IMG/VR virus record: IMGVR_UViG_3300028045_000070
Length of the DNA: 28,629 nucleotides
Direction: 5' to 3' (one strand)
Source: a virus
In this document: piece by piece, positions 3,587-28,622 of the stretch
Position numbering within the stretch: position 1 is the stretch's first letter
Layout of the letters: each line of letters begins with the position of its first letter
Notes under the pieces: generated by a model
Database searches by the model: none
Seen by the model: the letters and a program-made list of their open reading frames with translations, nothing else
Told to the model about the DNA's origin: nothing
Translations under genes and position numbers: made by a program

Positions 3587-3752
3587 TATGACTCTCCTTG
3601 TTGTTCTTCGGCTTCGCCAACCAAGAAACTCATGCGAGCAGGGATAACAACTGTAAAATTACAGTTTCCACAGCACCGACCGTCTTCTACTGGCTGGGCG
3701 TTATGCCCTTTATCCCACCCATTTTGGTTCGGGATTTCCTTTTCGCAAATGC
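3586..3752 (-). CDS. small zinc-ribbon protein (55 aa; below the ORF-track cutoff)
   Basis: Manual translation gives MKCCICEKEIPNQNGWDKGHNAQPVEDGRCCGNCNF.... Its TAG stop overlaps the GTG start of the DUF1257 gene (TAGTG). Confidence 0.4.
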
Positions 3753-3764
3753 AACACTTCATAT

Positions 3765-5381
3765 CTACAGATCCAATTGTCTACCAGCACTAGTATCACC
3801 GGGGTTGTCAATAACGCTGGCGTTGACAGCATTCTTGGAAGCCCACGCTGCCATATGATCTAGCTGCTTTGACTTTGATTTGGCTAGGGGGTTTGTCTGG
3901 TTAATAGCAACCTCAATGCCTTTAGCACTGATTTCCTCTTCCTTGTAAAAGGCACTGTAAAGTGCACTTACAATGGATTCCTCTAGCTCCGCTCCGCTGA
4001 AATCCTTTGATGCTTCGACACAACTGTCAACGCCCTCGGCAAAAACCTCACTAGGATCACGACCGTACTTCTTGACGTGAATATTAAGAATCTCTTCTCG
4101 CTCTTTAGTAGAAGGCAGGCCAACGAAGAAGATTTCATCGAAGCGGCCCTTACGCAAAAGCTCAGGAGGCAACCCTTCAATCCGGTTGACAGTAGCAACG
4201 ATAAATACCGGAGCAGTTTTCTCCTGCATCCAGGTGATGAAGTTGCCAAAGACACGCTGGCTAGTCCCCCCATCAGTTGAGCCACCGCCCATTCCTGAAA
4301 ATGCCTTATCCATTTCATCAATCCAGAGAACGCAGTTACCTACCGCCTCAACAGTCTGAATAGCTGTGCGCAGATTAGCCTCACTTTGACCGACCAGACC
4401 GCCGAAGACACGTCCGACATCAAAGCGGATCAGGGGAACACCAAGAATGTTGCTAGTGGCTTTAGCTGAGAGGCTCTTGCCGCACCCAGGAAGGCCCACT
4501 AGCAAGATACCGCGAGGCATGGGCAGTTTGAAGTCGCGGGCCTTCTTACTAAAAGCCTTACTGCGAATCATTAGCCACTTTTTGAGGTTCTGTAGTCCCC
4601 CAACATCCTTGGCCGTTTCCGCTGCCTCAAAATACTCCAGAATGCCTGTCTTTTTAACAGCCAGTGCCTTTTCTCCTAGAACCATTTTAGAGATGGGCTT
4701 TACTTCTTCCTCTCCTGCCTTTTTGGCTTCAGCCCGCTCTACCAAGGCTTTGGAGAATGCCGCTTCTGCTTCGTCTGTGGTCAAACCCATAGCAGCCTGG
4801 ACGATACGTTCAATCTCATCGTCCTCGATAACACCGATTTTCTTCTTGTTACCGCTGTACAGTGCGTTAAAGATCTGGAAGATTTCCTCCTTGCCAGGAA
4901 GATCAAACTCAATAAGAGAGATATCTTTTTCCAGTTCCTTGGGAATTTCGCTAACTGGGCTAATGATAATCAAGGTTTTCTGCGTTTGCCGAAAATCCTT
5001 AGCAATATCCCGAATAAGACGCCTAATTACTGGATTCTTCAGAAAACTGTGAAAATCACGAAATACGAAGATTTTCTTTCCAGGCCGATCTTTGATCGCT
5101 TGCAGGGCCTCCCCAGGATCAGTCTCTTCATCCAGGGCCTCAGCACCATTTGCACCGATTTCGATAAAGCCTTCCGTGCAAGACCATACCTCAAGACCAC
5201 GCTTGCACTTTTTAGCGGCTTCAAAGATAGTCATCTCGCCACGATTTTCTTCTGCTGTTTGCAGGTAGATAATCGGGTAGCTGGCCTTGATGTAGGGAAC
5301 AAGTATATTCATGTGATCCACGTAGGTTAGTGGGAGGCGTCTATATGCCCATATTAGAGCACAGAATACGCTTTTTGTCAA
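3765..5381 (-). CDS. AAA+ ATPase, Ycf46-like family
   Basis: Walker A is LLVGLPGCGKSLSAKA and Walker B is VLWIDEMDKAF. The sensor/arginine-finger region LRKGRFDEIFFVGLP and the LIRFDVGRVFGG motif are characteristic of Ycf46. Confidence 0.85.
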   Translation of the reverse strand: MTKSVFCALIWAYRRLPLTYVDHMNILVPYIKASYPIIYLQTAEENRGEMTIFEAAKKCKRGLEVWSCTEGFIEIGANGAEALDEETDPGEALQAIKDRPGKKIFVFRDFHSFLKNPVIRRLIRDIAKDFRQTQKTLIIISPVSEIPKELEKDISLIEFDLPGKEEIFQIFNALYSGNKKKIGVIEDDEIERIVQAAMGLTTDEAEAAFSKALVERAEAKKAGEEEVKPISKMVLGEKALAVKKTGILEYFEAAETAKDVGGLQNLKKWLMIRSKAFSKKARDFKLPMPRGILLVGLPGCGKSLSAKATSNILGVPLIRFDVGRVFGGLVGQSEANLRTAIQTVEAVGNCVLWIDEMDKAFSGMGGGSTDGGTSQRVFGNFITWMQEKTAPVFIVATVNRIEGLPPELLRKGRFDEIFFVGLPSTKEREEILNIHVKKYGRDPSEVFAEGVDSCVEASKDFSGAELEESIVSALYSAFYKEEEISAKGIEVAINQTNPLAKSKSKQLDHMAAWASKNAVNASVIDNPGDTSAGRQLDL

Positions 5382-26788: not shown

Positions 26789-28105
26789 TTATAGGGGCAG
26801 AGCCAGACCATAAGCGGAGATATATACACAAGCAGCTATAAAAGCCCCAATCAATCCAATAGCGGTAGACATACTAGCTGCTCGGTTACCTTTTCGGGTC
26901 GCATCGCGTGCAAAACCTTTTGCTTTATGTGCAACATTGTTAGTAAGGCCCCACAACATTATACAGAAAGCAGTAAATGCTGCTCCAACCTTGTTGGTAG
27001 TCCCTCCAAGCCACGCACCAGTCTTATTAAGGAAACTAGGGCTGGTAGTTCGTAGCACCGCAGGATGCAGCCGCCCTATGCGCTGACCATCTGGTCTTTC
27101 TGCAATCCAATTACCAGAGCGTGACTCTTCCACCAGCATATAAGGTTGGTGGCTGAAAACATGCCAGACGAGCATACCCGGAGCTAGTGCCGCCAGGTTT
27201 GTCTCTACACGAGCCTTGGTAAGAGCAACCTCTTGCGCCGCCCCTGCGTATTCATCACTAACAGCAATCTGTAGAACGTCTGAGCAGGATAGTTTCTCTT
27301 GTTTCTCTTGCTCCTGCCTCAACTTAGCCTCTAACAGCCTATTCGATGCCTCCAGATGCCCTTGCTGCCACAACTTGTCTTCCAGCAGCAGGTTTTCTGC
27401 ATGTAGTTTCTTATTCTCATCTCTAAGAACAGTCTGCGAATCCCGCATAGTAATCAAGGTCTTGTGGAGATCCTTAAGATCCAGTTCCAGCTTATCCTGT
27501 TTAGGAGAACCAACAGCCTCCGCACTCGCTCCGAAAGTAATACAGTGATCAATAGGGGCTGAGGTAATACGCGCAGATTGGGCCGATAACGACCTACCTG
27601 AGTGGCCCTTCGCCAGGATCCGAGACCCTGTGATATACCCATAAGTAGGGTTACGATTCCAGTTGTCATATGTTCCAGATTTAGGCTTAGTGCTTGCTAG
27701 TCTGATCCACTCTGTAGGAACCCAAGCACAAGTAGCGTTATCATCAGGTTTAGGGCTGCCCTTTAGGTGCCAACCATTGATTTTATCTAGCAGTGGCGCA
27801 ACACCCATTTTCTTATGGGCCTGTAGGTGAAAAATCTTGGTGCCCAAGCTGTTAACCCACTTTATCCAGCGATCCGAAAATTCGGAATAAGGTTCTGGTA
27901 GTGTACTAGGAACAGTAATATAGACTTTATCCCCAGAACTGAATACTGGACCATCAAGCTGCCTGCAAAAACGGCACTTGCCCTCACCATTACAAGGAAT
28001 AACACCAGCAGTGTGATTTTTCATATGAGCCTTCCAGCGTTGACGTGATCGACGCGAGGCATCCTTGTAAGGGCCGACTTTGTGGGGTGCGTATTGGTTC
28101 ATCAC
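26789..28105 (-). CDS. coiled-coil protein with the paralog-family C-terminal domain and TM anchor (family member 3)
   Basis: The C-terminus DEYAGAAQEVALTKARVETNLAALAPGMLVWHVFSHQPYMLVEESRSGNW is followed by a TM helix. The N-terminus carries a Cys/His cluster (HMKNHTAGVIPCNGEGKCRFC) and a coiled coil. GAGGTAG lies upstream of the ATG. Confidence 0.55.
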   Translation of the reverse strand: MMNQYAPHKVGPYKDASRRSRQRWKAHMKNHTAGVIPCNGEGKCRFCRQLDGPVFSSGDKVYITVPSTLPEPYSEFSDRWIKWVNSLGTKIFHLQAHKKMGVAPLLDKINGWHLKGSPKPDDNATCAWVPTEWIRLASTKPKSGTYDNWNRNPTYGYITGSRILAKGHSGRSLSAQSARITSAPIDHCITFGASAEAVGSPKQDKLELDLKDLHKTLITMRDSQTVLRDENKKLHAENLLLEDKLWQQGHLEASNRLLEAKLRQEQEKQEKLSCSDVLQIAVSDEYAGAAQEVALTKARVETNLAALAPGMLVWHVFSHQPYMLVEESRSGNWIAERPDGQRIGRLHPAVLRTTSPSFLNKTGAWLGGTTNKVGAAFTAFCIMLWGLTNNVAHKAKGFARDATRKGNRAASMSTAIGLIGAFIAACVYISAYGLALPL

Positions 28106-28122
28106 TACCTCAAGTGTATTAC

Positions 28123-28172
28123 GAAAATACCCCTAACGCAGCAAGATGGCCGCACGAGTTAGGGGTATTTTC
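28123..28172 (-). promoter_or_regulatory. perfect 15-bp inverted repeat (terminator/attenuator-like) in the 5' leader of the 26789-28105 gene
   Basis: GAAAATACCCCTAAC, a 20-nt loop and GTTAGGGGTATTTTC. The GC core CCCCTAAC/GTTAGGGG is flanked by T-tracts on both strands. Confidence 0.5.
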
Positions 28173-28251
28173 CGCGTTAGCCATTAGCCCAGAATCTCAA
28201 CAGTTTCCTGTTGCAGAGCCGCTGCATATAACGCTTGTCTTTGTTGCCCAA

Positions 28252-28279
28252 ATTGTATCAGGACTTGTTTTCCTGTCAA
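28252..28279 (-). promoter_or_regulatory. sigma70-type promoter (TTGACAGG, N16, TACAAT)
   Basis: The minus strand reads TTGACAGGAAAACAAGTCCTGATACAAT. Confidence 0.55.
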
Positions 28280-28289
28280 GGGAACGCGA

Positions 28290-28622
28290 TCAGCGATCAG
28301 ACTCATTATTTTCGGTGCGGTTTAATTCATTTTGATATCGTGCCGCAGTCCGCGCCCAGCTTTTAGCAGCGTTCTCTGCATTATCGAATTTCTTTTTTAG
28401 GATTTCACGAGGAACGGAATCAACTACATCATAGTCAATTCCACGATATTTGTCGGACCAGTTTCCCTCATTACAGAGGCTCAGATCCTCAATATAGTCT
28501 TCGGCGGAAAGCTCACTACCATCCGCAAAGAACATCTGATAGTCACTATCGCCTAGCTCACGATACTCCCATTCCCGGTCGTCACCGTGAGCCCATTTGT
28601 GTTTGTATCGAAACCATCTCAT
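28290..28622 (-). CDS. hypothetical acidic protein
   Basis: 110-aa ORF with its ATG at the window edge (28622). Confidence 0.4.
   Translation of the reverse strand: MRWFRYKHKWAHGDDREWEYRELGDSDYQMFFADGSELSAEDYIEDLSLCNEGNWSDKYRGIDYDVVDSVPREILKKKFDNAENAAKSWARTAARYQNELNRTENNESDR

Follow-up and report, generated by a model that had tools for sequence, protein, structure and literature searches.

The gene for a 437-aa protein of an uncharacterised family (minus strand, 26789-28102) is preceded by an RNA hairpin (minus strand, 28123-28172) that is real, has the shape of a terminator and lies between the promoter of the gene and its start codon. The gene is carried by a viral DNA stretch of 28,629 nucleotides (IMG/VR record IMGVR_UViG_3300028045_000070), hereafter named the window. 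Comparison with related loci leads us to propose, with moderate confidence, that the hairpin is a conserved cis-acting leader attenuator of one gene family, i.e. an intrinsic terminator whose invariant tip is a putative recognition site. The tip proposed to be recognised consists of a UCGU bulge, a GCGGC/GCYGC stem and a CAYCWU loop. For the window alone, a leaky terminator would be the safe verdict, but the relatives alter the picture: taken together, a tip kept in sequence, a stem that co-varies and a constant location behind the promoter of the gene speak for a dedicated cis-regulatory RNA and not a generic terminator. What appears to be new is a conserved leader RNA motif absent from Rfam and tied to an uncharacterised family of huge-phage-like genomes. 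Gene regulation in huge phages, which reach hundreds of kb and are known from metagenomes only, is almost unexplored, and the element described here is about 50 nt long with a clear anatomy of promoter, leader, terminator with invariant tip, and gene.

The preliminary description had placed the hairpin in the 5' leader, downstream of a TTGACA-N16-TACAAT promoter, and this placement was borne out by the sequence and by a promoter scan. The sigma-70-type promoter (minus strand, 28252-28279) comprises TTGACA (28279-28274), a 16-nt spacer, a TG extended -10 element and TACAAT (28257-28252). It matches 11 of 12 positions and is among the three best-scoring sites, each with 11 of 12, in the 8.6 kb scanned. 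It follows the stop codon of a 110-aa gene at 28290, and every gene in this part of the window is on the minus strand. A promoter family of the form cTTGACAG(G/A)...TGnTAnAAT recurs on the minus strand of the window, and the 28279 promoter is a good member of it. TTGACAG was counted 16 times on the coding strand versus 3 on the other, and about 16 full promoter-like sites were found on the coding strand of the 47.7 kb assembled, mostly 18-70 nt before start codons. From the position of the promoter, transcription is predicted to start at about 28245. The predicted 5' leader is then about 143 nt long (minus strand, 28103-28245), which is unusual in a genome where most leaders have about 18-70 nt, and the hairpin occupies +73 to +122, behind about 73 nt of leader.

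The leader folds as two independent domains, the hairpin and an upstream stem-loop, SL1 (minus strand, 28174-28234; -20.7 kcal/mol), whose tip is CAACAG-GAAA-CUGUUG (28213-28198). SL1 is found in the window only and is not conserved in relatives. The gene had been delimited as 26789-28105, with the hairpin about 17 nt before the Shine-Dalgarno sequence and ATG. The order holds, and the distances are corrected here to 11 nt to the Shine-Dalgarno sequence GAGG (minus strand, 28108-28111), which the hairpin leaves free, and 20 nt to the ATG. Because of the GAGG at 28111-28108, the ATG at 28102 is a likelier start than the GTG at 28105. A promoter between the hairpin and the ATG was considered and rejected, as the space is too small and contains no credible -10 element.

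The hairpin is built on a perfect 15-bp inverted repeat, as first noticed: GAAAATACCCCTAAC (28123-28137) is 100% complementary to GTTAGGGGTATTTTC (28158-28172), and 20 nt separate the two. The window holds two inverted repeats that are perfect over 15 bp and have a spacer of at most 40 nt, whereas dinucleotide-preserving shuffles (n = 200) contained 0.005 on average, which excludes a chance origin. The RNA fold and free-energy calculation advised at the outset gave a stable hairpin of -29.8 kcal/mol on its own, and -35.2 kcal/mol (z = -3.1) in a 106-nt context. The 5' arm (28172-28158) and the 3' arm (28137-28123) form a 15-bp lower stem that bears the apical element UCGU-GCGGC-CAUCUU-GCUGC (minus strand, 28138-28157), folded into a 4-nt 5' bulge (UCGU), a 5-bp stem (GCGGC/GCUGC) and a hexaloop (CAUCUU). 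A 14-nt core, GCGGCCAYCWTGCY (minus strand, 28153-28140), lies within the apical element. The base of the hairpin is made up of the A-tract GAAAAUA and the U-tract UAUUUUC (28129-28123), the geometry of an intrinsic terminator. The stem (15 bp plus 5 bp) is stable and contains G+C, and a U-rich tract follows the G+C core as GGGG-UAUUUUCGU, although this tract is short and interrupted. The suggestion that the element terminates transcription in both directions has no visible role here, since there is no convergent gene.

We then considered whether a second structure could compete with the hairpin. No antiterminator fold of comparable stability was found in the leader: the best alternative reached -29.7 versus -50.5 kcal/mol, and nothing of it was conserved in relatives. 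The leader therefore lacks the mutually exclusive alternative fold of attenuators of the trp, T-box or riboswitch type. Likewise, no match to Rfam 15 (riboswitch, T-box and leader families) was obtained in the window or in five related loci.

An exhaustive phmmer search with the 437-aa protein returned at least 38 distant relatives; a word-index search with the same protein gave no match, and no relatives were present in IMG/VR, GTDB genomes, GenBank phages or PLSDB plasmids. The identical protein is encoded on metagenomic contigs of 318 kb and about 600 kb. Six contigs carry it, and these close copies are uninformative because they are identical across the intergenic region. Homologues of the upstream 110-aa gene (35-70% identity) do not help either: similarity ends at the stop codon of that gene, so the leader cannot be aligned through them, and promoter, leader, hairpin and 437-aa gene make up a lineage-specific module. 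Informative loci came from distant members of the family. Two of them, P0016 (locus L018) and P0015 (L019), share 43% and 39% identity with the 437-aa protein over the matched stretches, and a similar hairpin lies just upstream of each gene. A further locus, L022, was found by a loop-pattern scan of metagenomes, and its adjoining gene is another family member, with about 40% protein identity. With the exact loop pattern, one IMG/VR match and 28 of the 30 metagenome matches were chance occurrences in high-GC DNA; the remaining two were the window's own locus (L039) and L022.

The 5' arm, apical 20 nt and 3' arm read GGAAAATACCCCTAAC, TCGTGCGGCCATCTTGCTGC and GTTAGGGGTATTTTC in the window, GGAAAAATTCTTTGGC, TCGTGCGGCCATCATGCCGC and GCCAAAGTGTTTTTC in L018, AGAAAATACCCTTTAGC, TCGTGCGGCCACCATGCTGC and GCTAAAGGGTTTTTTTC in L019, and TGATGATAGCCTTTAGC, TCGTGCGGCCACCATGCCGC and GCTAAAAGCATCATA in L022. 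The apical element of the three relatives is identical to that of the window at 17-18 of 20 nt. Mean pairwise identity is 0.81 in the apical 20 nt, compared with 0.52 in the flanking leader and 0.49 at third codon positions of the best-conserved protein block. Of the three variable tip positions, two are in the loop and one is a G-C/G-U exchange. In the lower stem, it is the pairing that is kept: 88.8% of cells are paired in the four-sequence alignment (A2), pairing falls to 41-52% when the 3' partner is slid by 1-3 columns, and RNAalifold recovered the same fold. Seven pairs show changes on both sides, a number reached by 0 of 500 shuffles, although these co-variation statistics are thin, as the long stem is present in four sequences only and L022 among them was found by its loop pattern. 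A covariance model (R1) scored the four loci at 72-81 bits in the sense orientation versus 17-27 bits in antisense, and it detected no further full copies in 143 kb beyond these family genes.

The four loci also share their organization: an upstream stop codon, a promoter, 83-182 nt, the core, 25-41 nt and the ATG. Their promoters carry TTGACA or TTGACG and match 10-11 of 12 positions, and the hairpin precedes the Shine-Dalgarno sequence and the gene. The A-tract/U-tract geometry of a terminator is found in three of the four (window, L018 and L019), and the U-tracts of L018 (UUUUUCUU) and L019 (UUUUUUU) are stronger than that of the window. In L022, both tracts are replaced by a compensating AUGAU/AUCAU helix without a U-run, and the 3' arm abuts the Shine-Dalgarno sequence. 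Termination is therefore not universal. As to the initial proposal of a regulatory leader hairpin acting through termination or an RNA-binding factor, the order of elements, the tip and the stem co-variation in relatives speak in its favour, and the lack of an antiterminator fold speaks against it. The other reading offered at that stage, a protein-binding DNA palindrome, is disfavoured: the arms change yet stay complementary, and the element lies well past the promoter. An operator would have conserved half-sites overlapping or adjoining the promoter, whereas here the arms co-vary and the centre is conserved. The leaders also differ in other respects. That of L018 contains short direct repeats (3851-3924, ATGAAAT about four times) and that of L019 contains CACGACACAAAAAAA-like direct repeat units (3724-3800, about four times), whereas the window leader has none.

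The core extends beyond the four hairpin loci. An exact 13-mer, GCGGCCACCATGC, lies 117-131 nt before the start codons of P0019 (L051) and P0017 (L052). The latter shares its samples of origin and its contig size class with the window and is thus probably a paralogue in the same genome. At both loci the core has no stable surrounding fold (z about 0), so it may be read as sequence, possibly as DNA. Since the long helix is present in four loci and the termination geometry in three, the tip is the invariant part. The 14-mer GCGGCCAYCWTGCY was found upstream of the gene in all six distinct family members examined that contain the arginine-rich motif described below, with a chance expectation of about 3e-8 per position; its consensus was written with L051 and L052 already seen, and the identical 13-mer in four loci is independent of that wording. 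A near-copy of the core, GCGGCCTTCATGCCGC, was seen at the end of a 63-aa gene in L014 (3607-3622; 12.8 bits, E = 1.3); no family gene is nearby, and it is probably a chance match.

The family members whose genes carry the 14-mer share a signature, an arginine-rich motif (ASRRTRQRWKAH) and a Cys cluster. In the 437-aa protein, the motif is ASRRSRQRWKAH (residues 15-26; minus strand, 28025-28060) within a predicted helix at residues 17-31 (pLDDT ~77), and it is followed by the cluster C37...C43-R-F-C46 (minus strand, 27994-27962). Twelve members share (P)Y..ASRRT(R/K)QRW(K/R)AH, then C-x3-5-C-(R)-F-C-(R/K), with the motif positioned anywhere from residue 13 to residue 804. One family member, P0020, lacks the motif, and no copy of the core was found in the 6.9 kb around its gene. 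Arginine-rich motif and RNA core hence co-occur at six of six loci and are both absent from one of one, a single negative case. A complementarity between the loop and the sequence coding for the arginine-rich motif was also considered and rejected, with no match in a by-eye comparison.

The predicted layout of the 437-aa protein starts with the arginine-rich helix, the Cys cluster, a small beta domain and a disordered linker, and continues with a long coiled coil, an SH3/Tudor-like barrel and two C-terminal hydrophobic helices. Only local features of the AlphaFold model (mean pLDDT 64.6) are usable because its pTM is 0.31; they include a coiled coil of about 100 residues and a confident small barrel at residues 311-345. 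Foldseek with this model gave only weak local Tudor/SH3-like matches (E above 0.03), and no significant match to the sequence was found in Pfam, PHROGs, NCBIfam or PDB sequences. The protein (270-440 aa) has predicted membrane helices, a feature rarely expected of a regulator that binds RNA. In several members the Cys cluster reads C-x3-C-x2-C (alignment A1), the spacing of radical-SAM iron-sulfur motifs, and faint NCBIfam matches to radical-SAM N-termini were seen. As the radical-SAM barrel is absent, a zinc knuckle is equally possible.

These observations suggest the following mechanism, in which termination itself, its modulation, the factor involved and the sign of control are our inferences. 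In transcripts from the 28279 promoter, and in any that read through from upstream, the hairpin would form between about 75 and 120 nt from the start. In the default state, many of these transcripts would terminate at the U-tract (28129-28123) and leave a leader RNA of about 120 nt, and expression of the 437-aa gene would depend on those that read through. Their fraction would be set by a trans-acting factor recognising the tip. In relatives without a U-tract, such as L022, the same factor could set access to the adjacent Shine-Dalgarno sequence. [quoted passage not shown] The tip and the arginine-rich N-terminus could in that case be an undescribed RNA-protein pair of huge phages, in which a membrane-anchored protein with an N-like motif binds the tip of its leader terminator and thereby acts as an on/off switch for its own transcription, or for translation in some relatives. 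We put this pairing forward as a tentative idea, possible rather than probable. If true, it would add to the known types of terminator control and to the known pairs of arginine-rich motif and RNA; if false, a new conserved leader RNA motif outside Rfam would still stand.

An ordinary Rho-independent terminator or insulator would be simpler. It would end the upstream unit (144-, 122- and 110-aa genes) with a fixed read-through, and its loop would be conserved by joint inheritance with the gene. The distribution of terminators in the genome gives this explanation some weight. A scan for hairpins followed by a T-tract in the 47.7 kb returned four compact strong sites: the studied hairpin, 19582-19551, 16089-16064 and 1677-1702 of L001, upstream of the window on the same contig. 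All but 16089-16064 lie 17-27 nt ahead of the next start codon, where a promoter would not fit. The L001 site, a terminator of sequence GCCCCTAAC-TGGAAAC-GGTTAGGGGC-TTTT, has an 8-bp stem core (CCCCTAAC/GTTAGGGG) in common with the studied hairpin but not the apical element. However, a plain terminator needs no particular loop, and here bulge and loop are conserved among leaders that cannot be aligned, next to genes whose synonymous sites are about 49% identical. The order of promoter before terminator is kept in four loci, and the core persists in L051 and L052 without any terminator. Within the genome, other intergenic regions run from stop codon to hairpin to promoter, and only at the studied locus does the hairpin come after the promoter. 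We therefore regard this explanation as unlikely. Beyond the promoter motif and the stem core of 8 bp, a search for copies of the palindrome elsewhere found 10-mers of the region no commoner than expected by chance, and a dispersed repeat was rejected.

Ribosome-mediated attenuation, as in erm/cat or trp leaders, could also account for a conserved 20-nt tip, if a short open reading frame crossed the hairpin, the 20 nt encoded S-C-G-H-(H/L)-A-A and the ribosome, translating or stalled, prevented the terminator from forming. The window indeed contains a mini-ORF of 21 codons starting with ATG (minus strand, 28119-28184; product MANAENTPNSCGHLAALGVFS) that spans the hairpin exactly. Its ATG overlaps the TAA (TAATG) of a 40-codon ORF (minus strand, 28184-28306), which itself overlaps the end of the 110-aa gene, contains the promoter and was called in one of several annotations; the codon score of this longer ORF is 0.075, between coding and non-coding, and it has no Shine-Dalgarno sequence. 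A 16-codon ATG ORF in L022 starts at the foot of the 5' arm and ends at that of the 3' arm. An ATG at the 5' foot is present in L018 as well, and changes at two of the three variable sites are silent in the S-C-G-H-(H/L)-A-A frame. A start is not a feature of every member, though: L019, L051 and L052 have no ATG, GTG or TTG in frame before the motif, and in L052 a stop codon directly precedes it. The L018 ORF extends over 100 codons and enters the main gene out of frame, and no convincing Shine-Dalgarno sequence precedes any of the ATGs. Moreover, third positions of the seven motif codons are conserved at 0.81, against 0.49 predicted from coding constraint. Translation across the hairpin thus seems an improbable source of the conservation.

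The core could instead act at the DNA level, as an operator or as a site for the recombination or mobility of a gene cassette, with the hairpin potential being secondary. The presence of the core alone, with no RNA structure, in L051 and L052 is consistent with this, as are the left edge of the lineage-specific module, located exactly at the stop codon of the 110-aa gene, and the differing neighbourhoods in which the family genes sit in each genome. On the other hand, the arms co-vary instead of being conserved, which suggests selection on pairing. The core is non-palindromic, has a fixed orientation relative to the gene and lies well downstream of the promoters, and no recombinase or repressor gene was seen adjacent to it. 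We give a DNA site a low probability. Equally little credence goes to an RNA processing or stability element, such as an RNase III-type cleavage site or a protective 3'/5' hairpin between the upstream and 437-aa mRNAs: the 20-bp bulged helix just before the Shine-Dalgarno sequence, the long helix retained in L022 through compensatory changes despite the lost U-tract, and the strongly structured stretch that separates nutL from N in phage lambda (PMC5725501) would fit it, but it leaves unexplained why the loop sequence is invariant and why L051 and L052 keep the core in the absence of a helix.

The proposed attenuator with a recognised tip, which we prefer to these explanations, was compared with known systems. 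Like A-tract/U-tract "bidirectional" intrinsic terminators, the studied hairpin has a stable stem, a G+C core (CCCC/GGGG) and an adjoining U-run paired with an A-tract, a design also used at 19551-19582 and at 1677-1702 of L001. Unlike usual intrinsic terminators, it comes after the promoter of the gene that it precedes, keeps the sequence of its loop and bulge across distant relatives, and combines a long stem (20 bp with a bulge) with a U-tract that is short in the window. In Bacillus and enterics, the LicT/SacY-RAT, PyrR, TRAP and HutP systems rely on an RNA-binding protein that decides whether a leader terminator forms, acting via a mutually exclusive antiterminator or anti-antiterminator fold. 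The studied leader would resemble them in having a terminator controlled by an RNA-binding protein and differs in that no alternative fold is present or conserved. HIV-1 TAR, with its pyrimidine-rich 5' bulge, short stem and hexaloop, is a type of site bound by arginine-rich peptides. The likeness of the tip to TAR-Tat is one of shape only, with no evolutionary or mechanistic link.

Among phage systems, lambda pL-nutL-N has a comparable layout: the N protein binds the boxB hairpin of nutL in its own leader, controls termination and represses its own translation (PMC5725501, PMC4124055). Both comprise a promoter, a leader hairpin and a gene whose product starts with an arginine-rich helix containing Trp (QRW here), and this analogy is what makes the protein's own helix a candidate for the factor. 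The lambda boxB, however, is a 5-bp stem with a GNRA-like pentaloop located apart from the terminator, whereas the studied tip has a hexaloop and a 4-nt bulge and sits on the terminator itself. Lambda N is a small disordered factor, whereas the protein encoded here is larger, has predicted membrane helices and shows no sequence homology to it. No conserved boxA (GCUCUUUA-like) and boxB were found in L018, L019 and L022. SL1 of the window contains GGCUCUGCAA followed by a hairpin with a GAAA tetraloop, but a nut-like reading of it was rejected, as the relatives keep neither the boxA-like GCUCU nor the GAAA tetraloop. We do not claim membership in the N/nut family because there is neither a conserved boxA/boxB nor homology to N. 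In Q-type and AlpA-type antitermination, a terminator just downstream of the promoter is bypassed by a loaded RNA polymerase (PMC9371919). The studied locus similarly has a constitutive-looking promoter and an intrinsic terminator within about 100-200 nt gating the downstream gene or genes. The recognition element of Q and AlpA is DNA at the promoter, whereas here it would be the terminator loop, and no Q or AlpA homologue or conserved promoter-proximal element was seen.

The genome around the element has features of its own. The window contains many small same-strand genes without known families, as well as an AAA ATPase of phage family phrog_8638, an SNF2 helicase and a homologue of vault protein (MVP). 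The source genome appears to resemble that of a huge phage, with no structural genes seen. The other perfect 15-bp inverted repeat of the window (AAGAAAACCCCGACC/GGTCGGGGTTTTCTT, 19551-19582) is a textbook terminator 8 nt past the stop codon of the SNF2 gene and 27 nt before the next ATG, and is followed by TGTTATACT, which resembles an extended -10 promoter. Upstream of the studied promoter, similarity in the relatives L012, L014 and L015 ends at the stop codon of the 110-aa gene, and in a strain variant (L009, from position 737) this gene breaks off after residue 56, with unrelated genes behind it. A mosaic module boundary thus falls right at the studied promoter in these loci.

PARP, zf-PARP, WGR and SET domains were detected in the window. 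Together with the SNF2 helicase, the WGR, SET and zf-PARP domains and a weak match to the PARP catalytic domain form a cluster of eukaryote-like chromatin and DNA-damage domains in a bacterial-style genome (1529-2305, 9055-9441, 14138-15265, 19591-21627 and 21773-22522, all on the minus strand). The vault-like gene (minus strand, 16098-17855) encodes a 585-aa protein with major-vault-protein repeats and a shoulder domain (Pfam Vault, Vault_3, Vault_4 and MVP_shoulder); a TTGACAGG promoter at 18070 precedes the gene, with about 200 nt of leader. The only phage matches of this protein are weak tblastn matches to uncultured phages of 462 kb and 735 kb. A tRNA-Thr(UGU) gene is present at 22870-22942 (minus strand) of the window, and a second tRNA-like gene was found in L052 (1108-1174), about 260 nt upstream of the paralogous family gene.
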